From NCBI GenBank assembly GCA_965224465.1, contig OZ245049.1, forward strand, positions 150,001-182,000: a stretch of 32,000 nt of DNA, given 5' to 3'. Position numbers and translations under genes: made by a program. How positions within the stretch are numbered: the first letter of the stretch is position 1; the number at the start of each line of letters is the position of its first letter. This DNA comes from Flavobacteriaceae bacterium (GTDB lineage Bacteria; Bacteroidota; Bacteroidia; Flavobacteriales; Flavobacteriaceae). Below the pieces are notes generated by a model, which ran no database searches, was not told the origin of the DNA, and saw only the letters and a program-made list of their open reading frames with translations. This document shows, piece by piece, positions 5,676 through 28,510 of the stretch.

Positions 5676-6100
5676 ACCAACTACAATCCAAAATGACAGA
5701 TGTAAATTGTTTGTTCTATGTTCTAGCGTTGTTGAAAAACAGAACGATTGTAAAGATATAGGGGAACTCAAAAAAGTCTACCTGTTTAGAGGAAGAGAAC
5801 CTCCTTCCTATTGGTTGCAACGAATAAAAGCAGGTGCTAATAATCGAACCCACGTAATGGGAAATGCATGTCAAAATACTGCTGACCAATGCTTATCCGT
5901 ATCTAAAAACGGTAGAAACCAATTCCTATGAAAGAGCTTGAGAGCAAATGACCTAAAAACAGGTGATATCTATAAAGACCTTTGTTGATAGCCTCTTAAT
6001 TAATTACACACGCAATCTCTATAGTATTATCTTTTGAGCCTGTATAGTCAACAGGATGTTCATGGCTGGGCGCTACGCACCGCACGAACACTTAGTTATT
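5676..6100 (+). repeat. R1 copy A: ~425-bp conserved non-coding module (includes the 64-bp core at 5682-5745)
   Basis: Aligns by eye with 18310-18732 along its full length. Identity is near-perfect except for a divergent patch at 5746-5815 that contains indels. Confidence 0.9.
5693..5761 (+). CDS. Tiny ORF, island-type copy (22 aa, MTDVNCLFYVLALLKNRTIVKI)
   Basis: The first 20 codons are homologous to the ORF at 28412. Of the 8 differences, 7 are synonymous third-position changes. The C-terminus differs from the 28412 copy. Confidence 0.35.
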   Translation: MTDVNCLFYVLALLKNRTIVKI

Positions 6101-6111
6101 GCCTATAGTTT

Positions 6112-6927
6112 TTATCCATTGAATTCATAATAATTAAATTTATAAATCCAACAATTATTTATAAACTCTAACGTAAAATTACCTCCATAACAATCACCTG
6201 GACTACCTATTAAATTCCCATATAATTTATAATTCCCATTTTCTTTTTTTAATGCATAAATTGAAATTGTTTCTAAAAACCCATTATATAAGTAACTTAC
6301 TATTTGTCCATTTTCTATTAACGAAACGACTGTTCCTAGCATTTCATGACTAGAATCTGTATATTCACTTAATACAAGTTTTACGTTTTCGTTATTGACA
6401 TAATGTTTTTGTGTAAATTTTATTGTTCTTTCTATATTCTCACCAAACAAATCACTACTAGCTATTCCACAAGATATCATTTCATCAATTTTCACTCTGT
6501 TTTTATAATTCAATTTTAGTTTAGTCTCTTTCAAGTTTGGCCTTATAGAATCAATTTTCCTAGAACCGTAGCTACCGTATATGTTATCCCAATTTTGGTC
6601 AATTAATTCAATTTGTTTTGAGCAATTATTTTTTCTTAAATCATAGATTCTATTAAAATAGATATAACCAACCTTACCTAAATTAGTTTTAATTAGCCAC
6701 CATTTATCGTTTTTTTCTTGTGGAAAACGAAATTTAAATTCTTCATTTTTTTCTATTCTTCCAATTGTTTGACTTGACGAACTATTGTTTTGTCTGATAT
6801 TAACATATCCATCAGAATCATTAATTATACCTGTTCCAATATGTCCATATTTAGGAAATTCAATGTTTTGGGCCATCGAATTTAAACTAAAAAAGAATAT
6901 TGTAATAATATATGTTATTTTATACAT
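6112..6927 (-). CDS. Secreted hypothetical protein with a bacterial SH3-like segment
   Basis: The internal ATG at 6927 gives a signal-peptide-like N-terminus (MYKITYIITIFFFSLNSMAQ). GYVNIRQ...WWLIKT..GKVGYI resembles the SH3b fold. Confidence 0.6.
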   Translation of the reverse strand: MYKITYIITIFFFSLNSMAQNIEFPKYGHIGTGIINDSDGYVNIRQNNSSSSQTIGRIEKNEEFKFRFPQEKNDKWWLIKTNLGKVGYIYFNRIYDLRKNNCSKQIELIDQNWDNIYGSYGSRKIDSIRPNLKETKLKLNYKNRVKIDEMISCGIASSDLFGENIERTIKFTQKHYVNNENVKLVLSEYTDSSHEMLGTVVSLIENGQIVSYLYNGFLETISIYALKKENGNYKLYGNLIGSPGDCYGGNFTLEFINNCWIYKFNYYEFNG

Positions 6928-7152
6928 AGGTTTTTCTAATTGTAGGTAACGATTAGCTAAGCACAGTGCGGTTTTAATATCTTCGAACCTCCCTGTGGCA
7001 ATTAGCCAAAGCATTTTATTTTGTTTTTACTTTTTAATCATAAAGCCAAATCAAAAGATTTACCTTCTGTGAGACTTTGTGTTGGCAGTCTTCGTTAAAA
7101 GTACTGAACTTCGACTTAGAAAACAAACCCGTATTGAGTTTAGGTGCTGTTA

Positions 7153-8337
7153 TCACGCGTTTTCTTTCGCTATGTTTACCGAATAGGATTTTTCAGCATT
7201 AAGTCCGAAAAAGTCAAAAACCTCCTTTTTAATCAACTTGTTTTTCGGATTTCTCAAATCATCTTCACGTTGATATATTTTGTCATTCCAATATGGTAGG
7301 TTTGAGTTTTCTGCAATTACCTTTTCTAAAGTCGACTTATTAAAATTAAGACCAGCTCCAATTGATTCGTTTCTGTGTGGATTGAATTTTAAACTATCCC
7401 AATCATTTTTTGATTCTGGATTTGGAATTTCAATGTACTTATAAAACTTATCTCTATGGGTTTCTTTGTAAATTAGACCATATTGCAAGTAAACTGTTTT
7501 AATATCTATATGAGAGATACTGCGAGCATAAGAAATTGGAAATTCAATTTCCCAATCTTCAAGAGGTAAGTTTCCAATTACTTCATAATCTCCATAAAAA
7601 AGTGCATTGTCCATTATGTACTGTGATGGTAAATACTTCAAAGTCTTAATTTTCTCTAATTCTACTTTTTTTGAGTTTGCAATAATGTGATAAACTTTTA
7701 TAACCAAAGGTTGTGTCATTAATTGAGCTAAACCATAATTTTTCTTTTCTTTAAAACTTGGTTCTTTTCTTGTTTTTCGGATATCGGCTATTAAGCGACC
7801 AAAACCATAGTTTCTTCTGTCAACTTTGAAAGTAAAGAAATCTCCTTCTTTTAGTTTTATTCTTTTTCTTTTTTTATTGGCGAACTCTTCCAAATCTTCC
7901 AAATCTTTCAAATCTTGCTGTGTTGTTTTACTTATAAAACTCTCAATCCAAATAGGCAAATCGTTTATACTATTGAATTTGGTGTTTTCAAAAAAAGTAG
8001 AGTAGAAGGTCTGTTCTGTCGTATAATTCCCAACAGTAACTCCGCTAACATCAAAATTAAAATATGCTCCAATCCCGTTTCTAGAATCTAATGAAGAGTA
8101 ATTCACTTTTTTTGGTTTTCCTCTGCTCGTTTTTGGTAAAAGCATTGTACGGTTATCAGTTTCTTCGTCCAGTTGGATTTCTCTGTATAGGTTATCATTT
8201 ATACTTATCTTTTTCCTAATTGTATTACCATCGAAGTAAATCGATACCTCTTCTGTTATTTGAAATTTGTCCCAACTTTCAGGAACTATTTCAAGTCCTA
8301 AGTACTTTCTTTGTTCATTGGTTAATTCAAATTTCAT
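7153..8337 (-). CDS. Hypothetical protein, possibly an Imm26-like immunity protein
   Basis: 394-aa ORF. The segment KEGDFFTFKVDRRNYGFGRLIADI resembles the Imm26 core motif as I recall it. No toxin gene lies adjacent. Confidence 0.55.
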   Translation of the reverse strand: MKFELTNEQRKYLGLEIVPESWDKFQITEEVSIYFDGNTIRKKISINDNLYREIQLDEETDNRTMLLPKTSRGKPKKVNYSSLDSRNGIGAYFNFDVSGVTVGNYTTEQTFYSTFFENTKFNSINDLPIWIESFISKTTQQDLKDLEDLEEFANKKRKRIKLKEGDFFTFKVDRRNYGFGRLIADIRKTRKEPSFKEKKNYGLAQLMTQPLVIKVYHIIANSKKVELEKIKTLKYLPSQYIMDNALFYGDYEVIGNLPLEDWEIEFPISYARSISHIDIKTVYLQYGLIYKETHRDKFYKYIEIPNPESKNDWDSLKFNPHRNESIGAGLNFNKSTLEKVIAENSNLPYWNDKIYQREDDLRNPKNKLIKKEVFDFFGLNAEKSYSVNIAKENA

Positions 8338-8540
8338 AGTTCTTCAAATGTATGGTAACGTCTAGTATAAGAAACGTAGGGCAATAAATAAGCACTATCG
8401 TTTCGGTTTATTACTTAGCTAAATATAAATATTTTGCTTTTATTTTTCTCCTAAATGCCAAATTTTATATTTAGCGGACTTTGTTAATACACACAGACCT
8501 TCGAGTTTAGCACAAACGCCCTATGTTTTTTATACATTGT

Positions 8541-10663
8541 GTGTGCCCAGCATGGGCATCTTTTAACTACGGAAAGGTAGTTAATTAATCTAGAGGGTGC
8601 AAGTCCCTTATGTGCAGGAGTAACGTTCTGAAACATTAGTAAGTCGCAAGGGTGAAAACCGTGAGGTTTTATCTGAAGATTATTTGCGATTGAGGAATGA
8701 GTAAATACCCTACAAAGCTCGGTACTGACGAACAGAAACCGTATACAGAGGTATAATTACTTGGGTAAGTAAACACATCATTGCAACGCCCAAAAGAATA
8801 CTAAAAGGGTAGTTATGTAGATACGGCAGTGATTGAGTGAACTGTAGCGAAGTGGAACTCAAGAACACCTCTAAAAAATAAAAAGGAGGTGAATAAAGAA
8901 GATGTCATTACCTGGGGAGGTCTCCAAAGCCAGGAGTTGGTTCTATGGAGAAGTCAGCAGACGTCATAGTACCTATGGGAAACGAGTTGAGGAAAGACCT
9001 CAGATGGTCTCACAAATAGGGAAGGACAGAACATTAAATTACGTTGAAATTCAATTAGGATGCCTAGCTAGCCTAGTTTTAAACCAACAGGAGTACCCGA
9101 ATTATTTAACCTATGATTGACAAAGTACTAGAAGCTACCAACCTTTTTAAAGCAGCACGTCAAGTGAAGCGAAATAAAGGAGCTAGCGGAGTTGATGGTA
9201 TGAACCATCCGAGAAGAAATATTCCTAAGAAAGACTATTTATCTTCGGATGCTCTATGTGACCGATTTAAATAAATAAAACCGTCACATAAAAGTAACGG
9301 AACTTTCAACTTATATAGTTGAAAACCGTTCAGACATACTAACAACGATCCGTAAGAATAGCTATGTTCCAAACTCAATCTTAGGAGTAAGCATTCCAAA
9401 AGGCAAGGGTAAAACCAGACTTTTAGGAATCCCAACAGTAGTAGATAGATGGCTACAGCAAGCGGTAAGCCAACAATTAATGGTTCAGTTCGAATTTGAT
9501 TTTGAGCCACTTAGTTTTGGGTTATTCACAGCTTTTTATTTTAGGGAGTTCATGAGCTCCCGTTGGTCGGTTTAGACCACAAAAGAACATTCAAAAAGCA
9601 GTACTACAAGCTCAACAGTATATCAATAATGGTTACCAAGATATTGTAGATATTGACCTTAAAGGGTTCTTTGATGAAGTGGACCATTGTATCCTACTAC
9701 AACTTATTTACCACAGGGTAAAATGTCCAACAACCATGCGTTTAATCCGAAAATGGCTTAGAGTTCCTATTTTAATAAATGGGAAACTTCAAAAGCGTAG
9801 AAAAGGAATCCCGCAAGGAAGCCCAATTAGTCCCTTACTATCTAACATAATGTTAGACGTCTTGGATAAAGAAATGAAAAGAATGGGTTTACGGTACGTC
9901 CGCTACGCAGATGATTTTAGCATTTACGCAAAGACCAAACGTGAGGCGAAACAAATAGGGAATACGTTGTTTGTCTTCTTAAAAGACAAATTAAAACTAC
10001 CTATAAATAAAGCCAAAAGTGGCATTCGTAGACCCGTAAACTTTGAGTTACTAGGACATGGCTTTGTGCCAGTCTACAAAAAGGGAGTAAAAGGACAATA
10101 TATACTAGTAGTAGCAAAGAAAAGTTGGGCAAAGTTTAAGCGTAACCTAAAGAGTATTACCAAGAAAACCAAACCAATGTCATTGTCGGAACGTTTAGAA
10201 CGGCTTAATCAAGTCTGCCGAGGCTGGATGAATAATTACCGTTTAACCAACATCTATGCAAAAGTTAAAAAGCTAGATGAGTGGATAAGAAATCGGTTGC
10301 GATATTGTATTTGGCACGATTGGAAAAAACTCGAACGAAAACGTAAAAACCTAATCAGATTAGGAATAGAGAATGGACAAGCATACGCTTGGAGTAGAAC
10401 CAGAATGGGAGGATGGGCAGTAGCCCAAAGTCCAATTTTAAAGACTACCATTACCAAATCTAGACTTGTACGAAAAGGGTATAAACCTTTGATAGATTAC
10501 ATTAATAATACGCAGACTTCAATTTTTTGAACCGCCGTATAGGTTCATGAGAATTAGAAGTATTTTTATACTTATAATTAGAGATGACCGAGCGAAGCTT
10601 TCGTACGTACGGTGGTGTGAGAGGCGCAGTGGCAACTATTCAGTTGTCACCCGTCTACTCGAT
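8541..10663 (+). mobile_element. Full-length bacterial group II intron (~2.1 kb) with a decayed reverse transcriptase/maturase ORF and no En domain
   Basis: The 5' end is GUGUGCCCAGCAUGGG (compare Ll.LtrB, GUGCGCCCAGAUAGGG). A domain V-like sequence, ACCGAGCGAAGCUUUCGUACGUACGGU, lies at ~10596-10622. Domain VI has a bulged A at 10657, 7 nt from a terminal ..GAU. The RT ORF sits in domain IV. Confidence 0.9.
9113..10530 (+). pseudogene. Group II intron RT/maturase, disrupted by at least two frameshifting insertions
   Basis: Three collinear pieces lie in three frames. Piece 1 is MIDKVLE..GASGVDGMN (9113-9205, frame 2). Piece 2 is VTELSTYIV..IPKGKGKTRLLGIPTVVDRWLQQA..FEP (9294-~9510, frame 3). 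Piece 3 is RFRPQKN..IPQGSPISPLLSN..RYADDFSIYA..RGWMNNYR (9556-10530, frame 1). Confidence 0.85.
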
Positions 10664-10801
10664 TAGGTGTCTGGCTTTTCTTTCCGCAAACTTGCTAGCG
10701 TTGGCAGAAGACATACTCTTTGACAAGTTTTGGATTTAGCGGTTGGTTTTTTAGCGACTTGGCAATGTGTATGGCTTTGTGCGTTGGCTAATTCATTTCA
10801 C

Positions 10802-13657
10802 TTAGTTTCCTGTTATTCCGTTTATAAATGTTTCCACAAATTCAACAATTTGTTTTAATATTTTATCTCCTAATTTTTTTCGTTTCAAAACAGACGGTTT
10901 TTCGCCTTCTATTAAATCCAACACTTCATCTCGCAAAGGTTCTCGTTCTGCGTAGAGATAGTTTTCTATTAGTTTCTGTGTTTTTTCTTCTGATAGATTT
11001 TCGTCTGTAGTTAGCTTTTTAAATGCTTTCTGCTGTTCCTCATTCCAAAATACTTCAAAGGCTTCTGGAATGTTGTCTGTATCTTCTATCGTTGGTAAAT
11101 TTTCTTCTATAAACTGCTGAATTAACTCTCGTTTACTTCTTAGGTTTACTTCTGTATTCAATAAGTTAGAAATTTCCTGTTCGGTTTTGGTTGCGTCTTT
11201 TTGCGTGTCCGATTTTAGTTTCATTAATAACTGAATAATGTAATTCACATTTATTTCGTCTCGGTGAATTAACTCCAATTCAAAATCTACATCTTCTAAA
11301 ATAGAAACTTTCTCAACAGCATTATCGCTTTTCACTTTTTGCCACAAATCCAAATACTTGCTTTTGTAATCTTCAAAAAGTTGTTCGGTCATTGCCAAAT
11401 CTTCCCATTTAAAATCTGAAAAAGAGTTTAGTATGTTCCGAATACGCATTAATTGACGAAACGCCTTAATAAATGCCAACTCATCATCTTCTGAAACTAA
11501 AGCGTTAACGCTGTTTACTGTTGGAGTAATCTTGATTAATTCGATAAAAGCTTCATTAAATTTGTTTACATAATCAACATAAGGTTCCATTATAATTACT
11601 TCAATGGCTTCTTTATTACTAAACAATGTTATGGCTTCATCTGTAGCCTTTTTTAAGTTTCTAAAAACCACAATATTTCCTTGCGATTTTTGTTCGTTTA
11701 GTATTCTATTGGTTCGTGAATAGGCTTGTATTAATCCGTGATATTTTAAGTTTTTATCTACATACAATGTATTTAGCGGTGGACTGTCAAAACCTGTTAA
11801 AAACATATTTACCACTAATAAAATATCAACTTTACGTTCTTTTACTTTCTTAGAAATATCATTGTAATAATTATAAAACGACTGACTGTCTTTGGTAGAA
11901 AACTTAGTGCCAAACATTTTGTTGTAATGTCCAATATATTCGTCTAATTTTTCTCTACTATGCACGTTCATTCCATACAAAGCAGGAGATTCTTCTACAA
12001 CCGAAACTTCTTCTGGAATAAATCCGTTGGCATCTGCATCCTCTTCATTGGCTACATAACTAAAAATGGTTGCAATTTTTAAGTTGTGTTTGCCTTCTTC
12101 TTTTTTCTTCTGAAATAAATCGTAGTATTTTATTAAGTTTTTAACACCACTTACACAAAACATTCCTGTAAACTCTTTTTGATGCGTTTTACGATTGTGA
12201 TTGGCAATAATATAATCGGTAATTTTATCCAAACGCTTTTCACTATCCATTAACTCTTTAGTGTCAATGTCTTCTACTTCAATGTCAATTTCGGTAGCAG
12301 ATTCTTTTCGTTTGTAACGACCTACATATTCTACCGAAAATTTGAGTACATTTTCATCTTTTATGGCATCTGTAATGACGTATTTATGCAAACACTCGCC
12401 AAATAGTTCTTTGGTAGTACGTTTTCCTAATTCATTTTTAACGGCATTGTCTTTAAATATAGGCGTTCCTGTAAAACCAAACATCTGGTTGTTATGGAAA
12501 AAGGCTTTTATTCTGTTGTGGGTTTCTCCAAATTGAGAACGGTGACACTCATCAAAAATAAATACAATTCGCTCATCTTGTAAAGCCTTCATTTTAGACA
12601 AATACTTGGCTTTGCTAATGGCTGTATTTAATTTTTGAATGGTGGTTACTATCAGTTTTGTATCGTCACCAAATTGTTTGACTAACGATTTTGTATTGTC
12701 TGTTCCATCAATACATCCTTTGCTAAAACTGTTAAACTCTTTGGTGGTTTGATAATCTAAATCTTTTCTATCTACCACAAAGACCACTTTTTTTACTTGT
12801 GGCATATTCATAATTATTTGGCTTGCCTTAAAAGAAGTTAAGGTTTTACCCGAACCTGTGGTATGCCAAATGTATGCGTTGTTGTTAGAGTTTTCTACTT
12901 GATTTACTAAGGTTTCTACTGCATAAAATTGATAGGGTCTAAGCACCATTAATATTTTGTGCGTTTCGTTTAGCACAATGTACTTGCTTATCATTTTTGA
13001 AATATGACAAGGCTCTAAAAAATCGCTTGTAAAACCGTTTATAATATTGGTTTGACGTTTATTGGCTGCATCTGTCCAAAAGAACGTTTGTTTAAAAGAT
13101 TGATTTCTGTTATTGGCATAATACTTTGTATTTACACCATTACTAATTATGAATATTTGAACATATTGAAACAAAGCCGATTTTGCACCAAACGAATGCC
13201 GTTGATACCGATTTATTTGGTTAAAGGCTTCTTTCATTTCCAAGCCTCTACGCTTTAGTTCTATTTGTACCAATGGCAAACCATTGATTAGTAAAGTAAC
13301 ATCATAACGGTTTTTGTAACTACCTTCCATAGTAACTTGGTGCGTTACTTGAAACTGGTTTTGACACCAAAAGTCTGTGTTTAGAAACTCAAAATAGAGG
13401 TTATCGCCATTATCTCGCTCAATATGCTGTTTGGCGCGTAGGGTTTTGGCTTTTTCAAAAACAGAACCTTTGCTGAGCATATTTAAAACACGTTCAAATT
13501 CTTTGTCTGAAAACGTAATGTTATTGTGCTTTTCTAATTGTGTTTTTAGATTGACTACTAAAGCGTTTTCATCTTTAATAAGCACTTTTTCGTACTTCAA
13601 TTGTTGCAATTGAGCCACTAATTGATTTTCTAATACTTGTTCTGGTTGTTTGCTCAT
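10802..13657 (-). CDS. hsdR: Type I restriction enzyme R subunit
   Basis: 951 aa. Helicase motifs are present: WHTTGSGKT (motif I) and FDECHRSQ (motif II). It is the last gene of the hsdM..hsdS..hsdR operon. Confidence 0.95.
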   Translation of the reverse strand: MSKQPEQVLENQLVAQLQQLKYEKVLIKDENALVVNLKTQLEKHNNITFSDKEFERVLNMLSKGSVFEKAKTLRAKQHIERDNGDNLYFEFLNTDFWCQNQFQVTHQVTMEGSYKNRYDVTLLINGLPLVQIELKRRGLEMKEAFNQINRYQRHSFGAKSALFQYVQIFIISNGVNTKYYANNRNQSFKQTFFWTDAANKRQTNIINGFTSDFLEPCHISKMISKYIVLNETHKILMVLRPYQFYAVETLVNQVENSNNNAYIWHTTGSGKTLTSFKASQIIMNMPQVKKVVFVVDRKDLDYQTTKEFNSFSKGCIDGTDNTKSLVKQFGDDTKLIVTTIQKLNTAISKAKYLSKMKALQDERIVFIFDECHRSQFGETHNRIKAFFHNNQMFGFTGTPIFKDNAVKNELGKRTTKELFGECLHKYVITDAIKDENVLKFSVEYVGRYKRKESATEIDIEVEDIDTKELMDSEKRLDKITDYIIANHNRKTHQKEFTGMFCVSGVKNLIKYYDLFQKKKEEGKHNLKIATIFSYVANEEDADANGFIPEEVSVVEESPALYGMNVHSREKLDEYIGHYNKMFGTKFSTKDSQSFYNYYNDISKKVKERKVDILLVVNMFLTGFDSPPLNTLYVDKNLKYHGLIQAYSRTNRILNEQKSQGNIVVFRNLKKATDEAITLFSNKEAIEVIIMEPYVDYVNKFNEAFIELIKITPTVNSVNALVSEDDELAFIKAFRQLMRIRNILNSFSDFKWEDLAMTEQLFEDYKSKYLDLWQKVKSDNAVEKVSILEDVDFELELIHRDEINVNYIIQLLMKLKSDTQKDATKTEQEISNLLNTEVNLRSKRELIQQFIEENLPTIEDTDNIPEAFEVFWNEEQQKAFKKLTTDENLSEEKTQKLIENYLYAEREPLRDEVLDLIEGEKPSVLKRKKLGDKILKQIVEFVETFINGITGN

Positions 13658-13660
13658 AGT

Positions 13661-13693
13661 TAATTACGAATTTGAAATTATGAATTACGAATT
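13661..13693. repeat. ATTACGAAT-type palindromic module a (TAATTACGAATTTGAAATTATGAATTACGAATT)
   Basis: It is an inverted repeat (32/33) of 15381-15413, and part of it is complementary to 14031-14060. It spans the stop codon of the four-helix-bundle gene. Confidence 0.9.
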
Positions 13694-20290: not shown

Positions 20291-20838
20291 TAGGCATCTG
20301 GCTTTTTATTTATTTCTTTTTTCAAACTTGTCATTGTCTGTTTTGGAGATTTTTCAATATATCTATTTGCTTTTTCTTTGATTTCAGCGTCTAAAGATTT
20401 TAAATATCTGATAGCATTCTCAATAGAAAAATCGATTCCTTGCTTTTCTTTGAAGTTACTGGGTAAGTCTGTCCATAATACAGCTGAGATATTATTCTCA
20501 TTAGCCCATTGTTCAATGCTTTCTATTAATACATCTGAAAGGTGTGAATTCTTTTCTTTATCTTTCAAATTAATAAATCCAATTCTCTTATTTATTGTTC
20601 CTTCTCGTTGTCTTAAATTCTCTATAGATTTTTCAATATCTGAGCCATCTGAAATCGCCCAATATGTTTCAATTAATGTTCCATGTTTTTCATCAATTAC
20701 TAATGTTAGTCGACCATCCTTTGATATGCGAGAGAATTCGATAGGAAGTTTAACTCCACCTTTATTCCAATCTGAAGCTATTTTTAATTCCCTTTTGTCC
20801 CAAATTAGACTACCCCAAGCTAAAATTGTAATTTTCAT
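20290..20838 (-). CDS. ChaC / gamma-glutamylcyclotransferase-like fold protein (putative)
   Basis: 182 aa. The N-terminal ILAWGSLIWD resembles the (Y/W)GSL(M/I)W motif of ChaC/GGCT. GRLTLVIDEKHGTLIETYWA and LRQREG resemble the ChaC core and its catalytic Glu region. This is from memory only. Confidence 0.5.
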   Translation of the reverse strand: MKITILAWGSLIWDKRELKIASDWNKGGVKLPIEFSRISKDGRLTLVIDEKHGTLIETYWAISDGSDIEKSIENLRQREGTINKRIGFINLKDKEKNSHLSDVLIESIEQWANENNISAVLWTDLPSNFKEKQGIDFSIENAIRYLKSLDAEIKEKANRYIEKSPKQTMTSLKKEINKKPDA

Positions 20839-20841
20839 ATT

Positions 20842-21486
20842 TCAATAGTTTATGTGAAGTCCAGCTATATTATTGAATTTACGAATAAAGGCTTCTTGTA
20901 AATCCTTAAGTAAAACTAATTCTTTGTTGTAGCATTCCAAATATTCTTTTATTCGGCTCTCAAGTATATTCCTATCTATTACATTATATGCATTTTTATA
21001 TTCATAAAATTCCGAATTATTATCTACTCTTATTATCCAATTTAATTTCGTAGAAGCTTCGTGTAATAATCCGCATCTTACATTTTCATAAAAACCTACT
21101 GCTAATCCATTTGTACTTGTGAATACTGTATTAAAAGGTTTTCTATTTTCGAAAAAAGAGATAAATTTATCTTTGCTTCTATTATATTCATATTGTTGCA
21201 ATTGATTATCTCTACAATATCTATAAATTCCTCCTGTATAAGTTGATTCCAAAAACTCAATCAATGAACAAAGAATTGCTGTGATTGAAAAACCCTCTCC
21301 ATTCAATTTATCATTATCCTTAATGTCTTTAATTGCTTTAAAATATCTCGTTTGTAACCTCTCATCAAAGAATTCATATGCCTCATTCCAAAGACTAGTA
21401 TCATTAGGTTTGGCTCGTAATTTATTTCTTAGGTTTTTCCAATCCAATACTGTTTTATATCCTGCTATTTGTATTGAATCATTCAT
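20842..21486 (-). CDS. Hypothetical protein with no recognisable domain; first gene of a two-gene operon
   Basis: 214-aa ORF. Its stop lies 3 nt from the start codon of the downstream ChaC-like gene. R2 copy 3 begins 18 nt upstream of its ATG. Confidence 0.6.
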   Translation of the reverse strand: MNDSIQIAGYKTVLDWKNLRNKLRAKPNDTSLWNEAYEFFDERLQTRYFKAIKDIKDNDKLNGEGFSITAILCSLIEFLESTYTGGIYRYCRDNQLQQYEYNRSKDKFISFFENRKPFNTVFTSTNGLAVGFYENVRCGLLHEASTKLNWIIRVDNNSEFYEYKNAYNVIDRNILESRIKEYLECYNKELVLLKDLQEAFIRKFNNIAGLHINY

Positions 21487-21504
21487 CTTTTTCTGCTTGT
21501 GCCT

Positions 21505-21711
21505 AACACCCGTATATCATCAATAAACTTCCAAAACTTGACGTTATTTCCGTTATATCTATAATAGTTTCGGGGTATGTGTTGTTTTTTTGTTAAAAGT
21601 ATTCAAATTTTTTAAATTTTAAAGCGGTCCAACGATTTTTTTATTGTTTATTTCGATGGTCTTCGTGTAAATCTCTGTGGGTTTTGGAGAAGCATGGCTT
21701 AGATAAGAAAA
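21505..21711 (+). repeat. R2 copy 3 (proximal variant A)
   Basis: Its proximal part is near-identical to R2 copy 1 and its distal part is identical to R2 copy 2. Confidence 0.9.
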
Positions 21712-21725
21712 AAATCAATTTTAAA

Positions 21726-21945
21726 GACTACCAAACACAAATGTAGACTTGTACGAAAAGGATACAAACGGTTGATAGAAACCAATAATAATACGCAAAC
21801 TTCAATTTTTTGAACCGCCGTATAGGTTCATGAGAATTAGAAGTGTTTTTATACTTATAATTAGAAATGACCGAGCGTAGCTCTCGAATGTACGGTGGTG
21901 TGAGAGGCGTACTCTGGCTAAGATAGTTGGAGCCGTCTATTCGAT
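21726..21945 (+). mobile_element. 5'-truncated group II intron fragment with a divergent distal domain VI
   Basis: It has the same 5' junction as the 20060 copy (GATAAGAAAAAAATCAATTTTAAAGAC). Domain V is conserved. The distal stem of domain VI is replaced (TACTCTGGCTAAGATAGTTGGAG) while the base of the stem and the bulged A are kept. Confidence 0.85.
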
Positions 21946-21973
21946 TATGTCCTTTTTTTATTTTTCACGTTGA

Positions 21974-22816
21974 TTAAATACATAATTTTATCAGTTTACA
22001 ATCCATTAATTTTGCTGGATTGTTAGGGTCTTTTATCTGCTTATTTTCAATACTAAAACCACTTTCTTTTATTCCTTCAAGTTTAGTTCTACTTTCTTTA
22101 GGAAAACTATTGTATTTATCTGTTGGAATTATACCAACCAATTCAAATTCTTTGTCGGTTGGTTTGTGTAAGTAATTGAATACTTTTCTAGGGTTTTCAA
22201 TTTGCCACATTTCCCTAATTCTCAAGTTTGTTATTCCTAAAGGGTCAACTTGATTAACTCTTCCTAATTCTTTAGTATTTGCGAAAACAACATCTGGAAT
22301 AGTTTCTATGCCGTCTGAAATAGTCGTTTTTATTCTTTGGTATGTTTCGTGTTTGGCTGCGTACGAACTACCATAAACCATCCATAATGATTTCAGACTC
22401 GTATCTGTAGTGTGTCCAACACAGTAAATTAAATCTTTAACTGTCCAATCTTCACATTCCTTGCATTCTTTCGTAATCATAGGACTTGTATGTCTCAAAT
22501 CAGTTTTTGGATAACTGCTATTTAAAGCCAAACTTGAATTTGCACTTTGAGTTTTCTTAACTTCAATAGCATCTCCTCCTTTTATCATAATATCAGGTGG
22601 ATTATTTTGGGAACCTAACCAAGAAAATTCTTGATTATAAGTCTGCATTTTTTTTGTTTCGTTTGTTAATCCCAATGTTCCAGCAAACGCATCCTTGATA
22701 TAATTTTCAAGTGAGTCTCCCATTCCATTTGCTCGATTCCTGCCCGAATACATTACACGTATTTCAAAATTCTTTTGATTTACGATATTATAAATTGCTT
22801 CTAAAATATTTGTCAT
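21974..22816 (-). CDS. Type II restriction endonuclease, NgoPII-like (predicted GGCC)
   Basis: 280 aa. Its start overlaps the stop of the upstream HaeIII-like methyltransferase gene by 4 nt (ATGA). [22 protein letters not shown] matches my recollection of the NgoPII family. Confidence 0.65.
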
Positions 22817-24198
22817 AGGGCAACTGCTTCTTTAGTTTTTTGAGTTTGTTTTGCTTTTTTCGTTGTGATTTCGTTTGCCTTTATTTGTTGCATTATACTA
22901 TTTGCAAGAAATTTAGCCAAATTAACAGGAACTGCATTTCCAATCATTTTGTAACCTGCTGCAATTTTTTTGTAATGAAAAATAAAGTCATTAGGAAATG
23001 TTTGAATTCTTGCACATTCTCGAACACTTAAGCGTCTATATAAATGTTCTTTTCCGGGAACGAAAACACGAACATTTTTTTCAATAAATTTCATTTTTGG
23101 TGCTTGTGGATGAATAGGAGCGTGTCGTCCACCTGCTTGGATAGTATAAGATTGTTCATCCCAATCTCTAACACGGTTTCTTGACATAAACATTGAAGAA
23201 AAACTTCCAATCATATATTCGTGATTAGGAAGAATACAATTTTCGCCATTTGTATTATTATACTCTAAAGCAGGTAAAACACCTTCTTTTAAATCCGAAA
23301 TAGCTGTTTCAAGAGTAACTTTTGGAAATGTTTCAGTTGGAAATTGGTACTTAAAATTTAAGTCTTTTCTAATTCCAATAAAAAATATTCTTTTTCGGTC
23401 TTGAGGTACATTGTAATCAGATGCGTTAAGCATTTGAAAAGAAAGTTCGTAACCAACTCCTGCATTTCTGAAAAGTTCTTTTATTCCTTCAAGAGCTTCT
23501 GTATGTTTTGAAATTAGCATTCCACTCACATTTTCGGCTAAAAAGAATTTTGGTTGTTTAGCTTCTAAAATTCGTATAAAATCATAAAACAATTGACCTC
23601 TTTTGTCTTTAATTCCTCTTGCAGAACCAGCTTCACTCCAACTTTGACAAGGAGGACCTCCAATTATTCCGTCACATTCAGGAACTTCATCTGCAGGGAT
23701 ATTTACAAGACTTCTTTTGTCAAGAATTGTATTAGGGTGATTTTTTTCATAAGTTTCCCAAATTTCTTTGTCATATTCATTTGCCCAAACAACATTGAAT
23801 CCTGCTTTTTGGAAACCTAAATCAAGTCCGCCTGCCCCTGCGAAAAAAGATGCAATTTTCATATTTAATTGTGTTTGAAGTGATTTATTAAGTATTCTAC
23901 GATATTCTGCTTTTTCTTCTGCAACTTGTAAAAGTTGTTTTGTACAGTTCGTTTCATAAATTTGTTTTCCGATTTGATCAGTAACATATTCATTCTGTAA
24001 TTCTTTAAGATTGAGTTTGAAAATTTCCGCAAGTTTAGGTAAGCGTTTTTTATCAAAATCTCGTTTCCCATTCTCGATTTTACTCAAATTTGCAGAATCT
24101 AAACTTAGTTTAGCTGCAAGTTGAGTCAAAGTCAATTTGTTTTTTGTTCGTAAAAGTCGGATGTATTCTCCAAATGTGGTATTCATAAGACTTGTCAT
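22813..24198 (-). CDS. DNA (cytosine-5) methyltransferase, HaeIII/NgoPII-like, with an N-terminal XRE-type HTH domain
   Basis: C5-MTase motifs are present: [12 protein letters not shown] (I), GGPPCQSWS (IV), LAENV (VI), [10 protein letters not shown] (VIII) and GNAVPV (X). Long stretches resemble M.HaeIII as recalled. The first ~70 aa ([25 protein letters not shown]) form an HTH. Confidence 0.9.
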
Positions 24199-24388
24199 TT
24201 TTTGACAAATTTACAAAATTTATTGGATTATTTTAATTTAGTAGTGATTTTTTTTAATTGGGCATGACGTTGTTGTGTATTATTAGTTGCGTGTTTCAAG
24301 TACTAAAGTTAGTAAATAAATCACAGATAGAAATTCCACAAGGACTTTCGTAAATTGGCTAAAACCAACAATTAATTATACACGGTGT

Positions 24389-24812
24389 GTGTGCCCAGCA
24401 TGGGCGTCTTTTAACTATGGAAAGGTAGTTAATTATTCTAGAGGGTGCAGTCCCTTATGTACAGGAGTAACGTTCTGAACTGCGTAGCTCTCAGGAACAC
24501 CTCTAAAAAAATAAAAGGGAGTGAATAACTGCGAAGCTATCATGAACACCTCTAAAAAAATAAAAGGGAGTGAATAAAATCCAATTTTAAAGACTACCAT
24601 TACCAAATCTAGACTTGTACGAAAAGGGTATAAACCTTTGATAGATTACATTAATAATACACAAACTTCAATTTTTTGAACCGCCGTATAGGTTCATGAG
24701 AATTAGAAGTGTTTTTATACTTATAATTAGAAATGACCGAGCGTAGCTCTCGTACGTACGGTGGTGTGAGAGGCGCAGTGGCAACTATTCAGTTGTCACC
24801 CGTCTACTCGAT
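24389..24812 (+). mobile_element. ORF-less mini group II intron (internal deletion derivative, ~424 nt)
   Basis: Its first ~90 nt match the 5' end of the full-length intron. Two tandem 49-nt units follow that match 8842-8890. The last ~232 nt match the 3' end of the full-length intron (domains V and VI intact). Confidence 0.85.
24480..24577 (+). repeat. Tandem duplication (2 x 49 nt) inside the mini intron
   Basis: CTGCGTAGCTCTCAGGAACACCTCTAAAAAAATAAAAGGGAGTGAATAA is followed by CTGCGAAGCTATCATGAACACCTCTAAAAAAATAAAAGGGAGTGAATAA. Confidence 0.9.
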
Positions 24813-24824
24813 TATATGCAGGGC

Positions 24825-25147
24825 TTACGCACTTTTTAATTCCTCTAAGAGCCAATTCAGTTTTTGTCTAGCCACACTTATCAAATCAACATAAGTGCGA
24901 TAGAGGACATCTCCACGTTCGTTATGTGAACTGATTATTCCTTTAACTTTACCTCCCAAAAGTATAATTTCTATTTTCTGACTATGAAAATATACATTTA
25001 ATTCATCACGGTATTTCAATGCTTGTGCTTCTGTATCTCTATTTAAAGTAAAACTTGGTCTTTTAAACTCTATTAAAATTAAAGACCTTGTAATATTTCT
25101 ACCAAAGAGAATGTCCGGTCTATCATCAGGTTTATCTCCTTTATAAG
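24825..25147 (-). pseudogene. C-terminal fragment of the IS-disrupted GHKL-ATPase/DUF4263 gene (PD-(D/E)xK nuclease core)
   Basis: Reading on from 26729 after removing the IS and one TSD copy gives ..EKVIKKTYKGDKPDDRPDILFGRNITRSLILIEFKRPSFTL..ELKSA*. The D..ExK pattern resembles DUF4263. Confidence 0.8.
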
Positions 25148-25156
25148 TTTTCTTAA

Positions 25157-26728
25157 CTCAAGTTTCGCACTTAGATAGATTTACGCAACCTCTTGATAGT
25201 TAAGCTTGTGGATATTCACTAGGAATCCAAAATCTTCAATATTCGCTATTATTTTACGTGTAACCATTTCAACATCAATAGATTCAATCATCTTTTCCAA
25301 AATGTCAATCACCAAGCTGATAACTGCTAATATCCTGATGTTTAGCTTATTCTCTATATAATCTTGTTTTAAATCTTTAAACAAGCCTCCTATAGTTTCG
25401 TAGGCTTCCATTCTATATCGAATACTGGTGAGTAAATATTGAACCATTATAATGCTTATTTGTGCGATTTGAATATCGAAATTAGTAGACTGACATTTTC
25501 CAAGACCAAACAACTGCTTAGCTTCTTTAAAAAACACTTCTATGGACCATCTGATACTGTATATTTCAATAGCCTTTACAAATTTCAGTGTTGTATCCGT
25601 TGATATTAACGTGTGCCATTTGCCATTCTTTCCACGTTTTGAAATAAATACAGCAACCTTAAGACCATCAATTTCAGTTATGTAATGATGGTAGTAATAA
25701 TTGAATTTACGGCATCGTTTTGGTTTTATTTTCTGTTTTTTGAGTTGTGACAACGTTTTTATCTTTGATCGAACTTCAATCTTACTGTTGTATTTATACA
25801 TCCCAATAATATGAGTTGAACTACTAATGTTCCGTAGCTTTCTAAGTAATTTAACACTTGTAAACCAGGTGTCTATTAAGATGTAATCTATGGGGATTTT
25901 ACGTTTTACAAGCCTTGAGAACATTTGAACTAGCAGGTCTGTTTTCTTTTTATTGAGTTCCTGATACCTCTTTGCTGCAATTGTTTTACTACATCTTGGA
26001 GTTTTCTTTTGAAGCCTACGTTGCTTCGCCGTTAGACCGTATTTTAATTTTGATGTTTTACTTTCACGATGCAAACTAAAGTCAACAGGGATAAATACAC
26101 TTCCATTCCAATAACCAGCTACAAGTAGCTTAAAGCCTAGGTAATACGTTTTTGACACATGGTTGTATATTTTTGAAACACCTTCAATTGTCTTTCCTGT
26201 TTTAGAAAGATCAGTATCGTCAAAGATCAAGCACTTTGTAGCGTCTTGAGATGGAGTAAAGAACTCTTCTTTTAATAGATATTGCTTCACAAACTGAGCT
26301 AGAAAAACCCTCCAATTTATCTTTTGATTTGCTAGGATTCGATAGTATGAATCTTTACCCGACTGACCTAATCCCTTGTCTTTACTACTTGTAAGTCCAT
26401 GAATAGAATCAAATCCGATAATAGGTAAAATTAAAAGTGTAGAGATTAAATTACCGAATGAAATCCCCGATTTCTTACACCAACTAAACTTGTTTTTAAT
26501 TTTATTGAATCCTAAAATATTTAGATGTGCTTGTAGGTATTCTGAACTAAGCCAAATCTTATTAAATTTTCCTTTTATCTCCTGTGTTTTTGTGATATCT
26601 TCGTGTTCTAGCATGTTTTGTACTTTCTTGTTCGTACTTAAAAGTACAATAAAACCAGGGGATTACCTTGGTTTTCATGCTATTTATTTTTACTTAAACA
26701 CCTGTAAATGATGGGTGCGAAACTTGAG
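25157..26728 (-). mobile_element. IS4-family insertion sequence (1572 bp)
   Basis: Perfect 14-bp terminal inverted repeats: CTCAAGTTTCGCAC at 25157-25170 and its complement at 26715-26728. A 9-bp target-site duplication, TTTTCTTAA, lies at 25148-25156 and 26729-26737. Confidence 0.95.
25181..26614 (-). CDS. IS4-family DDE transposase
   Basis: 477 aa. YSIRWSIEVFFKEAK matches the Y-2-R-3-E-6-K signature of the IS4 family. Confidence 0.9.
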   Translation of the reverse strand: MLEHEDITKTQEIKGKFNKIWLSSEYLQAHLNILGFNKIKNKFSWCKKSGISFGNLISTLLILPIIGFDSIHGLTSSKDKGLGQSGKDSYYRILANQKINWRVFLAQFVKQYLLKEEFFTPSQDATKCLIFDDTDLSKTGKTIEGVSKIYNHVSKTYYLGFKLLVAGYWNGSVFIPVDFSLHRESKTSKLKYGLTAKQRRLQKKTPRCSKTIAAKRYQELNKKKTDLLVQMFSRLVKRKIPIDYILIDTWFTSVKLLRKLRNISSSTHIIGMYKYNSKIEVRSKIKTLSQLKKQKIKPKRCRKFNYYYHHYITEIDGLKVAVFISKRGKNGKWHTLISTDTTLKFVKAIEIYSIRWSIEVFFKEAKQLFGLGKCQSTNFDIQIAQISIIMVQYLLTSIRYRMEAYETIGGLFKDLKQDYIENKLNIRILAVISLVIDILEKMIESIDVEMVTRKIIANIEDFGFLVNIHKLNYQEVA

Positions 26729-28160
26729 TTTTCTTAATTACTTTTTCAATTGAGCTTTTCAAACCTTGGTCTGAAAATATTACAGAATAGTCATCTCCAA
26801 AAAGCCAAGTATTTTTTTCAAATGCTTTGTGAACTGTTGATTCTAGAGTTTTTGGATTTTCGATTAAAATATTAAGTTCATCTAAAAACCTTAATCGATT
26901 AATTGCTTGATTTGTAATTATACTCATTTCTAAAAAACCGAATTGAGAAAGTGCTTCTGCAAATTTTTCAACATCTCCAGTTCTAGTTTCTTCAATATTT
27001 TGAACGATTTCCCAATAATAATCTTTTTCCATTGCAGAAACCATAACAGAAATAACTGTATTTATTCTGTCTTCAGTTTCTCCATAAAACTTTTCTAAAA
27101 CTTTATACAAAGCTTTCTTTGCAAAAGGTTGTTTATGCTCTGGAAGCTTTTCAAGTTCCTTGTTAATCTTTCTTTGATAACGAGCTTTTGCCATTTTCAT
27201 ATCTGTAGCAAAAACTTCATCAACTGATTTTCTTAACTGTTCAGTTGTATTTACTGTAAGTGAATTATAAAGTTTACTATTGTCAATTACAGCACCAAAA
27301 TCTGCTGTTAAATCATCTTCTAAATCATCACAAACTATTTCTCCGTATACTCGATTTTGTAATTTTTTAGGAATAATTTCATCTTTTGAAAGAAAATTCT
27401 GAGGTCTACCAATTATTTTATTGTTTACTCTAATAGCAATACCAGATTGTTTAATAGGTTTTTCCGTTATCGTATAATTCAGCGTTGCCATTTTGCCATT
27501 CGGTAATTCTATTCTTTCCGAATATGATTTACCTTGAAGATCTAAAACACCAATGCTTTCTCCATTTATCGTAATATCAAAGTCCATTTCTCGACCATAA
27601 TCACGAATTAGTATTTCTTTTAATCTCTCTGGGTTTGGAAAATTGAAGTTTTGATTTATTCCTTCAAGTGTAATTTTTGTTCCGTGTTTGGTTTTGTCAC
27701 AGTCAGAAGTATTTATTGGAAGTGGGACTTTTTCTAAATCGTAACCAGCTTTTGCTAAATCATCTTTATTAATTGTTAAAGAAGTCATTTTTCCATTAAC
27801 AAATGTTTCAATAGTCATTTGGCTAGCAACCATCAAACCTGAAAATTTCCCAATCCCTTTACGTCCTTTGACTTTTCTTTTTTTCGTAAAAGTGGTATTT
27901 CCTTTTCGGGAAGTTCTACTATTTGCGATATTCAAATATTCATTTCGCACTTCCATCTCTTTCATTCCAGAACCATCATCTTCTATGATGATTTTAGGGT
28001 CAGGCGTTAATTCATCGGGGAGAATGATTGTGACGTTTTCGGAGTCAGCATCATATGCATTGTCTATTAATTCTTTTGTAGCTTCTTCGACTGAACGATA
28101 TGTTTCGCCTAATAACTTTGCTAACTTAGGGTCAACTTTAAAATGTGCTGGTTTTGTCAT
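26729..28160 (-). pseudogene. N-terminal part of the IS-disrupted GHKL-ATPase/DUF4263 (Shedu-like) gene
   Basis: The Bergerat fold motifs ELIDNAYDAD and IIIEDDGSGM are present. The ORF runs into the IS and ends after 10 IS-encoded codons. Joined to 24825-25147, it gives 1755 nt (584 aa) in frame. Confidence 0.85.
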
Positions 28161-28199
28161 ATTTTTTTGAAATACTAATGTTTTTTTTGCCTTGCATAT

Positions 28200-28389
28200 A
28201 ACACCCGTATATCGACTATAGAACTCTTAGAGTAGCTGTTATTTCTAACATAGCTAGAGTAGAATGAGTGATTATTTGTTTTTTTGTTAAAAGTATTCAA
28301 ATTTCTTAAATTTTCAAGTTGCCCAACGATTTTTTTATTATTATTTCGATGGTCTTGGTGTACATCTCTGTGGTTTTGGAGAAGCATAG
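28200..28389 (+). repeat. R2 copy 4 (proximal variant B)
   Basis: Starts AACACCCGTATATCGACTATAG, 39 nt upstream of the GHKL gene's ATG. The third copy of the 64-bp core follows at 28401-28464. Confidence 0.9.
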
Positions 28390-28411
28390 TTTTATATTAA
28401 TACAATCCAAA

Positions 28412-28510
28412 ATGACAGATGTAAATAGTTTATTTTATGTGCTGGCGTTGTTAAAAAACAGAACCATAGTATGGATATTCATCCATTTTTTACCTAGCTA
28501 TAAGAAGTAG
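28412..28510 (+). CDS. Tiny hydrophobic ORF, presumed native copy (32 aa, MTDVNSLFYVLALLKNRTIVWIFIHFLPSYKK)
   Basis: Over the first 20 codons there are 8 nucleotide differences from the copy at 5693. Seven are synonymous third-position changes and one gives C to S. This pattern indicates selection on the protein. Confidence 0.5.
   Translation: MTDVNSLFYVLALLKNRTIVWIFIHFLPSYKK

Follow-up and report, generated by a model that had tools for sequence, protein, structure and literature searches.

The window, a 32,000-nt stretch of a Flavobacteriaceae genome (contig OZ245049.1, positions 150,001–182,000), carries an insert at 5624–28567, as defined against the nearest relative compared, with which homology ends at 5623 and restarts at 28568. 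The nitrate/nitrite genes and the M16 peptidase gene are positioned outside this ~23-kb insert, and restriction-modification (R-M) genes, defence genes, an IS4-family element and a decayed intron reverse transcriptase (RT) are positioned inside it, the same division of housekeeping and accessory genes that the original prediction had described. The cargo consists of six units (U1–U6), every one on the minus strand. As also predicted, no tyrosine or serine recombinase was found among the open reading frames of at least 80 amino acids in the window. The features of the insert are as follows.

5672–5753 (26-mer 5682–5707), no strand: core copy 1, joint of chromosomal flank and R1, array tail end
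5754–6100, no strand: R1 copy 1, non-coding, downstream of cassette U1
6112–8358, minus: cassette U1, Imm26-domain gene (7153–8337) and SH3-domain gene (6112–7014); begins TTACCA after G8359
8359–8540, minus: U2 attC-like site, main part (L''...L'-R'), ends GTTACCA; its plus strand is the intron 5' exon, ending ...CATTGT
8541–10663, plus: class-C-like group II intron of full length, its RT/maturase frameshifted; runs antisense to the cassettes, at TTGT/T in the U2 attC R''
10664–10670, minus: R'' stub of the U2 attC (ACCTA|), complementary to the U2 start TTAGGT
10671–18113, minus: cassette U2, type I R-M operon (hsdM, Bro-N/PDC-S13 gene, hsdS, 23S-IVP-family gene, hsdR)
18114–18307, minus: R2 copy a, promoter-like motif 18240->18211; ends ...GATATATGAGTG, the last G shared with R' GTTAGGT
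18306–18387 (26-mer 18316–18341, one SNP), no strand: core copy 2, R2a/R1 joint
18388–18732, no strand: R1 copy 2
18733–19850, minus: cassette U3, 301-aa gene of unassigned function (18857–19762); begins TTGTAA after G19851
19851–20045, minus: R2 copy b, promoter-like motif 19976->19948
20054–20290, plus: intron 3' remnant x, directly flanked 5' by R2b and 3' by the U4 R'' stub (GCCTA|)
20291–21506, minus: cassette U4, two genes of unassigned function (214 and 182 aa); begins TTAGGC
21507–21701, minus: R2 copy c, promoter-like motif 21632->21604
21710–21945, plus: intron 3' remnant y, abutting R2c and the U5 R'' stub (GACATA|)
21946–24267, minus: cassette U5, NgoPII-type R-M (HTH-fused C5 methylase and endonuclease)
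24268–24388, minus: U6 attC-like site, main part (L''...L'-R'), ends GTCATGC; the restored site folds into a long imperfect hairpin
24389–24812, plus: ORF-less mini-intron, internal-deletion derivative of the full intron, at GTGT/T in the U6 attC R'' (ATATA|AC)
24813–28201, minus: cassette U6, HATPase_c_3 and SduA_C (Shedu-like) gene, IS-interrupted; begins TTATAT, own R'' ATATAAC
25157–26727, minus: IS4-family insertion sequence in the U6 gene; terminal inverted repeats perfect over 16 bp, target duplication ~10 bp
28202–28394, minus: R2 copy d, array head; ends ...GGGTG, the last G shared with R' GTTATAT
28391–28472 (26-mer 28401–28426), no strand: core copy 3, joint of R2d and chromosomal flank

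The three repeated modules (core, R1 and R2) are non-coding. The 82-nt core occurs three times in direct orientation, with identities over 82 nt of 95% between copies 1 and 2, 83% between copies 1 and 3, and 80% between copies 2 and 3; it includes a 26-mer (TACAATCCAAAATGACAGATGTAAAT) that is the same in copies 1 and 3 and carries a single G>A in copy 2, as had been claimed. The left arm of copy 1 is unrepeated elsewhere, and that of copies 2 and 3 is R2; on the right, R1 follows copies 1 and 2 (433 nt aligned, 92% identity), and the arm of copy 3 is unique, yet ~77% similar to the other copies for a further ~52 nt. These alignments give the order B-O-R1, R2-O-R1 and R2-O-B', confirming the predicted pattern B-O-P' / P-O-P' / P-O-B'. 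The original prediction had read this pattern as two accessory elements in tandem, which, taken literally, means two independent integrase-less IME/satellite-type islands, inserted via attP x attB at the core and carrying ordinary cargo rather than cassettes. The junctions, the 26-bp identical stretch, the decay of identity on the B' side and the lack of a recombinase within the insert all agree with two islands, as does a cargo-free allele in the nearest relative compared. That allele is not the exact empty site anticipated: it is free of cargo, but a 764-aa gene stands in place of the insert, the core, R1 and R2 are absent, and 5619–5707 is not joined exactly to 28427, which leaves the core a candidate att site. 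We consider two islands improbable in view of the internal organization of the insert, in which the proposed second element (18342–28426) is not a single unit, as four cassettes and two additional R2 junctions lie within it.

R2 is present in four copies, of which b and c, overlooked in the original prediction, are joined to an intron stub instead of the core. All four are conserved to ...GATATACGGGTG, end at the crossover base, and are followed by TTAGGT, TTGTAA, TTAGGC or TTATAT, so that each R2 ends at G|TT and leads into a different cassette with a matching R'' of its own, where one is retained. A promoter-like motif of the Bacteroidetes type (TTG-N18-AAAATTTG) was identified in three copies, and the cassette start codons lie 14–40 nt past R'. 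With this motif and with an L'-R' half-site ending in the crossover G, R2 probably serves as the array's own junction module, a Pc-plus-attI-like unit whose promoter would be directed toward the next cassette; its folding yields no complete attC hairpin, which counts against an integron reading. It is very improbable that these modules (core, R1 and R2) are simply dispersed REP/MITE-like intergenic repeats of the genome that ended up by chance in a defence island: although they are non-coding and R1 has no significant fold, the modules occur at cassette borders only, in a single orientation, and every R2 stops at the crossover base. Exact matches to the core and R2 were absent from 185,579 species genomes, JGI metagenomes and viral contigs, and BLASTN searches of plasmids and phages returned no match.

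Each of the six units begins directly past the G of a GTTRRRY-like box. In U2 (ACCTA|AC), U4 (GCCTA|) and U6 (ATATA|AC), the six initial bases are complementary to the unit's own downstream R'' (xxxTAAC), an integron cassette signature, and U5 matches at 5/7 positions; against an integron reading, U1 and U3, both of which end in R1-core, have no matching R''. Attachment-site (attC)-like hairpins are retained in two cassettes (U2 and U6), each split by a class-C intron, and the 56 cassette-proximal nucleotides of R1 copy 1 (6101->6046, minus strand) could form a short AAC...GTT hairpin, a motif for which the scan has a high background (5–16 hits per strand in shuffled sequence). The core has neither a hairpin nor a GTT crossover box, and hence its recombination chemistry is not explained by an integron model. 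Frames containing GCCAACGC flank the U2 operon, as they do the NgoPII cassette of another contig, L021.

Four copies of a 3' group II intron fragment of ~240 nt, likewise overlooked in the original prediction, are present (10427–10663, 20054–20290, 21710–21945 and 24576–24812). For the introns, Rfam detected group II domains, the RT matches the class IIC RTs 6AR1 and 7UIM (E=1e-47 to 1e-49, vs ~1e-14 for a IIB and 1e-13 for a IIA protein), and the exon junctions, read on the opposite strand to that of the cassettes, are TTGT/T and GTGT/T. Group IIC-attC introns target TTGT/T in the R'' of attC on the bottom strand (PMC7923331, PMC3001079). The introns described here resemble them in their class-C-like RT, target, strand, antisense orientation to cassette transcription, presence in CALINs, truncated copies, and a stub with an outward promoter-like motif, and differ in their Bacteroidota host and in the fusion of two stubs to R2, with the rest of the attC replaced. 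Such introns would have homed to the R'' of two attC-like sites, and subsequent deletions may have produced the 240-nt stubs. Neither the hairpins nor attC-targeting introns are expected of two simple islands.

Other marine Flavobacteriaceae contigs carry homologues of five cassettes, and for four of these the homologue is part of a comparable cassette array. Contig L015 carries a cassette 90% identical to U4, matching over 20290–21507, with an intact attC (GCCTAAC...GTTGTGT), and L016–L018 match U6 over 24812–28201 minus the IS, with intact 584-aa homologues; in this base-level comparison of two cassettes, homology ends at most 1 base from the predicted crossover or intron sites. Homologues of the U3–U6 cassettes are found one at a time and in different surroundings, which again argues against a unitary second element. 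In L021, a XerD/IntI-like tyrosine recombinase stands at the head, and the cassettes after it share one orientation and have imperfect hairpins of ~130 nt; the first is a U5 homologue (85% nucleotide identity), and six of the seven keep the rule linking R'' to the first six bases. The additional arrays L031, L032 and L034 carry homologues of U3 (L031 and L032) and of the U1 SH3 gene. Such an enzyme heads a homologous array, so that at the present locus it would need to work in trans. The L021 recombinase scores 195 bits against the NCBIfam integron-integrase model, below its cut-off of 265, and this, together with the lack of a recombinase in the window, weighs against an integron reading.

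The history of the repeats can also be read as a single insertion or assembly in which the R1-core-R2 joint was duplicated by unequal crossing-over or gene conversion, after which turnover and intron-mediated deletions diverged the halves, with no second integration. The R1 bodies are 97% identical, vs 75% in the adjoining 60 nt; the R2 copies are mosaic, with proximal halves of two types (a=c, b=d) and distal halves grouped otherwise (b=c, 98%); and the R2-intron-stub joint is itself present twice, 1656 bp apart. Together these observations indicate frequent homologous exchange among the repeats. We nonetheless judge this history unlikely, since R2 copies a and d, the arms flanking the two segments, share 65% identity in the proximal half and 86% in the distal half, a divergence far above that of a recent duplication, and a first event placing the core at both ends would still be required.

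Arrays of integrative elements in tandem at one att site, such as satellite/IME arrays and IMEX at dif, are well known. The present locus resembles them in its attL / hybrid / attR order of three cores and in elements without their own integrase, and differs in that the "elements" are cassette-array segments and the place of insertion is not a tRNA gene or dif. Tandem elements that lack an integrase and share one site are characteristic of IMEX, and the 26-mer ends on the right in a XerD-arm-like stretch (ATGTAAAT); integration of IMEX-type segments by host XerC/D at a dif-like 26-mer is nevertheless scarcely credible, as the left half is unlike a XerC arm, the 26-mer lacks palindromic symmetry, the relative carries nothing of the kind at this locus, and GC skew and gene orientation are equal on both chromosomal flanks, placing the locus away from the terminus.

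Close known systems are CALINs, integrons that lack a neighbouring integrase, and the sedentary chromosomal integrons with defence cassettes (PMC9024848; bioRxiv 10.1101/2024.07.02.601686). The locus shares with them co-oriented promoterless cassettes, a G|TT crossover in a GTTRRRY-like box, no integrase in cis, first six bases complementary to their own R'', attC-like imperfect hairpins of ~130–200 nt, and R-M, Shedu-like and immunity cargo. It differs in its Flavobacteriaceae host, IntegronFinder 2.0 having reported one complete integron in Bacteroidetes (PMC9024848); in a related array whose recombinase is XerD-like, co-directional and upstream; in four junctions that are R2 modules with promoter and half-site only; in one cassette that is a 7.4-kb operon; and in the 26-bp direct repeat, unlike attC, that brackets the array. 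[quoted passage not shown]

We therefore propose that 5624–28567 is probably an integron-type cassette array, rAID-like and lacking its own recombinase gene. Its six promoterless minus-strand cassettes would each have been joined by strand exchange at G|TT, the reaction type of integron-type tyrosine recombinases. As the three cores and their R1 and R2 arms show, segments U1–U2 and U3–U6 lie head to tail, each with R2 at its head and R1 at its tail, in ~88 bp of core-like chromosomal sequence with a crossover inside 26–32 bp of identity; this arrangement could reflect either two Campbell-type insertions in succession or a single insertion that was later altered by duplication and turnover of cassettes. 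Movement in trans or by homologous recombination, as originally suggested, remains tenable given the junctions, the lack of a recombinase gene and the cargo-free relative, but not as the movement of two simple islands. On this proposal, the supposed two elements are two segments of one integrase-less, rAID-like integron array, and its cargo is six swappable cassettes of mostly anti-phage and immunity genes.

The two integrase-less elements in tandem that the original prediction had placed here are more aptly described as segments of one integron-like cassette array; the junction logic behind that interpretation holds, as does the reported lack of a recombinase, given that no tyrosine or serine recombinase was found inside. 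The limits of the insert were set by comparison with the nearest relative, the Flavobacteriaceae MAG NORP167, whose flanking proteins are 83% (left) and 72% (right) identical and whose DNA aligns with positions 1-5623 and 28568-32000 of the window, so that the insert corresponds to 5624-28567. As had been anticipated, the nitrate/nitrite assimilation genes and the M16 peptidase gene lie outside it, and the R-M, defence-type, IS4-family and decayed group II intron RT genes lie inside. Between its flanks, NORP167 carries a 764-aa molybdopterin-enzyme (oxidoreductase) gene that is absent from the window (contig L001, 11437-14232); this gene separates the nitrate-gene cluster from the M16 peptidase gene, the place taken by the array in the window. 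No core, R1 or R2 sequence was found at the NORP167 locus, the only close relative. An empty site joining 5619-5707 directly to 28427 had been expected, and NORP167 does represent a cargo-free allele, but the exact predicted site with a core is absent from it. The GC content of the insert is ~0.25-0.39, mostly ~0.30-0.33, versus 0.34-0.42 in the nitrate-gene flank.

Within the insert, the minus strand carries all of the cargo, in co-oriented and mostly promoterless cassettes (U1-U6) that are interspersed with copies of the core repeat and with intron pieces, as listed below.

Features of the array, in window coordinates
5672-5753, core copy 1 (82-nt unit; all three copies in direct orientation)
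6112-8358, minus strand, cassette U1
8541-10663, plus strand, full intron, antisense to the cassettes
10671-18113, minus strand, cassette U2
18306-18387, core copy 2 (82-nt unit)
18733-19850, minus strand, cassette U3
20054-20290, intron 3′ stub fused directly to R2, still adjoining the R″ stub of U4
20291-21506, minus strand, cassette U4
21710-21945, intron 3′ stub fused directly to R2, still adjoining the R″ stub of U5
21946-24267, minus strand, cassette U5
24389-24812, plus strand, ORF-less mini-intron, antisense to the cassettes
24813-28201, minus strand, cassette U6
28391-28472, core copy 3 (82-nt unit)

For several of the cargo proteins, near-identical relatives are encoded in DNA from other marine samples. 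An organism in the dataset SRR24204450 shows 95% identity across cassette U3. On a 217-kb contig (L021), the NgoPII R-M genes, with 85% nucleotide identity, are positioned directly downstream of a 390-aa tyrosine recombinase gene, and each following gene or gene pair is succeeded by an imperfect ~130-nt hairpin of the form ...xxxTAAC-A-(N)GTATA... ...TATAC-NNNNNN-GTTxxxx. Six of the seven L021 cassettes have a downstream xxxxAAC box of their own that is exactly complementary to the six bases following G|TT at the cassette start (for example TTACCC/GGGTAAC, TTGTAA/TTACAAC, TTGTAC/GTACAAC, TTACCT/AGGTAAC and TTAGCA/TGCTAAC). Such a match between the first six bases and R″ is the signature that integron-type recombination leaves. 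The L021 recombinase is XerD/IntI-like, scoring 213 bits against a cut-off of 220 for the XerA/integron-integrase model and 195 bits against a cut-off of 265 for TIGR02249 (NCBIfam). A generic AAC...GTT hairpin scan recovers six of the seven L021 attC-like sites and is too noisy for discovery in the window.

The same rule is found in the window, where the first six bases of the cassette are perfectly complementary to its own R″ in U2, U4 and U6; the bases after R2 are TTATAT (U6), TTAGGC (U4), TTGTAA (U3) and TTAGGT (U2), and the own downstream boxes are ATATA|AC (U6), GCCTA| (U4) and ACCTA|AC (U2), the bars denoting intron insertion points. U5 starts with TCATGC and ends with GACATA|, matching at five of seven positions, and no matching R″ is present at the ends of U1 and U3. 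The predicted crossovers (21506/21507 and 28201/28202) and intron insertion points (20290/20291 and 24812/24813) coincide, to within one base at most, with the positions at which homology to L015 and L016 breaks off. L015, a JGI contig, contains the two-gene block of U4 with 90% nucleotide identity (homology running from window position 21507 to 20290 and ending there), followed by an intact attC (GCCTAAC...GTTGTGT) and with another attC (....GTTAGGC) upstream. L016-L018 carry an intact 584-aa HATPase/SduA_C gene with homology to 28201-26728 and 25156-24812, a two-part match indicating that the window copy was split by an IS. Homologues of the U3 gene and of the U1 SH3 gene occur in three further arrays (L031, L032 and L034). 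The NgoPII endonuclease (21974-24198, minus strand) is at least 90% identical at the protein level to relatives in Polaribacter and Kordia, and its 90%-identity cluster, which includes these genera, comprises 142 members; this suggests that the cassette has spread recently across genera.

The attC-like sites of the window are obscured by introns. A ~240-nt intron 3′-end segment, overlooked in the original prediction, is present four times: in a full intron, in an ORF-less mini-intron and in two stubs fused directly to R2. The full intron and the mini-intron split ..CCTA|AC.. and ..ATATA|AC.., their 5′ exons ending in ...CATTGT and ...GGTGT and their 3′ exons starting with T; this antisense position in R″ at TTGT/T is that of IIC-attC introns, which are defined by insertion in the bottom-strand R″ of attC at TTGT/T, opposite to cassette transcription, and have also been reported from integrase-less arrays (PMC7923331, PMC3001079). 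The ribozyme is of group II (Rfam group-II-D1D4-3, 97 bits) and is accompanied by a class C protein, the frameshifted RT/maturase, whose best matches among solved structures are the IIC RTs 6AR1 and 7UIM (E=1e-47 to 1e-49), with IIB at ~1e-14 and IIA at 1e-13. When the introns are removed, U2 and U6 regain attC-like sites. In the U2 site the arms pair at -11.6 kcal/mol, the U6 site folds into a long imperfect hairpin, and both resemble the seven L021 sites; with their R″/R′ boxes and hairpins, they would supply the two attC sites that are the minimum for a CALIN, that is, an integron cassette array without an adjacent integrase. For U4 and U5, only the R″ stub is left of the attC-like site, and at both stubs R2 replaces the 5′ part of the intron and the remaining attC. 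No complete integron (IntI, attI and Pc) was found in the recombinase-free window. A diversity-generating retroelement, which the combination of an RT and repeats might suggest, was rejected: the RT is of the group II maturase type and the repeats are intron 3′ ends.

Some further features of the intron pieces were noted. Within the mini-intron, a 49-nt stretch of domain I is duplicated in tandem (24478-24575, plus strand), and a large internal deletion is joined at an AAAG/AAAA microhomology. A promoter-like motif of the Bacteroidetes type, TTG-N19-TANNTTTG, occurs on the minus strand of both stubs (20111-20082 and 21767-21738); it is directed from the intron antisense strand towards the next cassette and recalls the Pout promoters that group IIC-attC introns carry.

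The R2 module was predicted in two copies and was found in four (a-d). On the minus strand, it is always located directly upstream of a gene block, and an intron piece or R1-core always directly downstream of one; conservation among the four R2 copies extends to ...GATATACGGGTG (minus strand). Four different cassettes are joined to R2 at its G|TT. Its cassette-proximal end has the L′-R′ layout of attC sites, and it resembles, in a weak alignment, the short site between the stop codon of the L021 recombinase and the first cassette. R2 was rejected as a complete attC, since its consensus fold across 248 columns is weak (-9 kcal/mol). In three copies, a promoter-like motif of the Bacteroidetes type, TTG-N18-AAAATTTG, points to the next cassette, and the fourth copy has a near match. 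Because of this motif and of ORF start codons located 14-40 nt past R′ (U4 and U6), we infer that R2 may combine a promoter with a half-site for primary recombination and thereby function much as Pc and attI do together. Two proximal types and several distal types are combined in mosaic fashion among the R2 copies, which indicates homologous exchange among them. An exact-pattern scan for R2 in metagenome and viral collections gave zero matches. In a different Flavobacteriaceae lineage, contig L034 has long inter-cassette sites of 220-350 nt (5757-6113, 7709-7930 and 8726-9081) that share a ~120-nt repeat with a promoter-like motif, an analogue of R2.

At the outer level of organization, the prediction of three direct core copies and its coordinates were borne out by repeat comparison. 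The 26-mer TACAATCCAAAATGACAGATGTAAAT is the same in copies 1 and 3 and differs at one base in copy 2. To the right of copies 1 and 2 lies R1 (433 nt aligned, 92%), R2 precedes copies 2 and 3, and unique sequence is present before copy 1 and after copy 3; the attL/hybrid/attR arrangement, an identical core with distinct arms, is present at the three cores as proposed. Eight of the ten bases directly before the 26-mer are common to copies 1 and 2, and copy 3 is ~77% similar to the other copies over ~52 nt past it. The array starts with core-R2 and finishes with R1-core, with a complete R1-core-R2 joint between U3 and U2. This layout is the product expected from recombination inside 26-32 identical bases; a circle with R1-core-R2 would have recombined with a core-like sequence of ~88 bp in the chromosome, in either two such events or one event and a subsequent duplication. 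The arms have diverged very unevenly (97% identity in the R1 body, 75% in the 60 nt after the core and 65% in the proximal halves of R2a and R2d), which argues against a simple recent duplication; duplication followed by conversion would still be compatible with this pattern.

A role for the core as an attachment site is plausible, and the core and R1 are the least explained parts of the locus. The core does not form an attC-like hairpin (z-scores of -0.6 to -1.3), exact-pattern scans of genome, viral and metagenome collections gave zero matches to it, and R2-core-R1 had zero BLASTN matches among plasmids and phages. On the minus strand, the first 56 nt of R1 can fold into a short AAC...GTT hairpin directly past the last gene of U1 and U3, and the R″ rule does not hold at these hairpins. 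Other readings were considered and rejected. R1 is stop-ridden in every frame, its 89-aa ORF being broken in copy 2 and without a homologue, and gives no tblastn signal as a relic of the 764-aa gene of the relative or of an integrase; as a structured RNA, R1-core has z-scores of -1.0 and 0.0, one to two covarying pairs and no Rfam match. Variants of the core show a cross-wise complementarity to variants of R2, but it is out of register and was put down to chance. A recombination motif shared by the core (AATCCAAAATGACAGAT) and the intron (AATCCAATTTTAAAGAC) was discarded: the pattern had been taken from these very sequences, and the mini-intron deletion is accounted for by the AAAG microhomology. 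A dif/IMEX site was rejected because neither GC skew, which is positive on both flanks, nor gene orientation switches across the site.

Several observations concern the cargo itself. The type I R-M cassette contains a Flavo-1 RNA motif (RF01705, 61.7 bits) at 15409-15487 (plus strand), adjoining one arm of a 33-nt, 97% inverted repeat (13661-13693/15381-15413) that brackets hsdS and a 23S-rRNA-IVP-family gene; these two genes could be an invertible or exchangeable specificity module. Between hsdM and hsdS, a Bro-N-domain gene (15513-16364, minus strand) matches PADLOC PDC-S13 at near full length (E=1e-135). Stretches of 70-90 nt rich in GCCAACGC, which occurs four times in the window versus 0.17 expected, flank the type I R-M operon within U2 (10697-10789 and 18007-18094, minus strand); in the first L021 cassette, homologous stretches lie on either side of the NgoPII R-M genes (4501-4571 and 6843-6931), and none is present at the NgoPII cassette of the window. 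The HATPase_c_3 gene (24813-28201, minus strand) is the front part of a 584-aa HATPase plus SduA_C (Shedu-nuclease-like) protein and is split by an IS4-family element (25157-26727) that has perfect terminal repeats of 16 bp and is accompanied by a target duplication of ~10 bp; the intact homologues in L016-L018 are single cassettes between housekeeping genes.

The locus works like a CALIN and like the rAID-1 (recombinase-associated acquired interbacterial defence) clusters of Bacteroidales, which combine a XerD-like recombinase with a co-directional low-GC gene array and integron-reminiscent intergenic repeats (bioRxiv 10.1101/471110; PMC12247911). Corresponding features in the insert are at least two co-directional low-GC downstream genes, repetitive intergenic motifs and immunity genes, including an Imm26 domain (E=1e-20). 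Defence systems in chromosomal integron cassettes have already been documented (bioRxiv 10.1101/2024.07.02.601686). The locus differs from these known systems in its Flavobacteriaceae host, the R2 promoter/half-site modules, a 7.4-kb operon-sized cassette, the intron stubs fused to R2 and the non-attC core repeats that bracket the array, and the related L021 array differs in its non-canonical recombinase. A broader model, which we regard as rather unlikely, holds that R2-core-R1 is a portable integrase-less platform, in which R2 would serve as promoter and primary cassette-addition site and the core as a separate chromosomal attachment site, such that arrays would circularize and move as units by means of a XerD/IntI-like recombinase acting in trans. 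If true, this would add array-level mobility to cassette-level mobility in a phylum in which integrons are barely described.

Integron-type gene capture is well characterized almost only in Proteobacteria. For Bacteroidota, the literature consulted comprises one complete integron, that of Salinibacter according to IntegronFinder 2.0 (PMC9024848), and the rAID clusters known from gut Bacteroidales, which are mechanistically undefined; a later review counts the phylum among those bearing integrons (PMC8618304). At the base-pair level, the locus and the related contigs show that arrays of marine Flavobacteriaceae follow the integron crossover rule, swap R-M, Shedu-like and immunity cassettes between genera and are parasitized by attC-targeting class-C introns. 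The R2 junction module may serve as a promoter and insertion site that is free of a recombinase, and the locus offers a concrete, testable mechanism for rAID-like systems.
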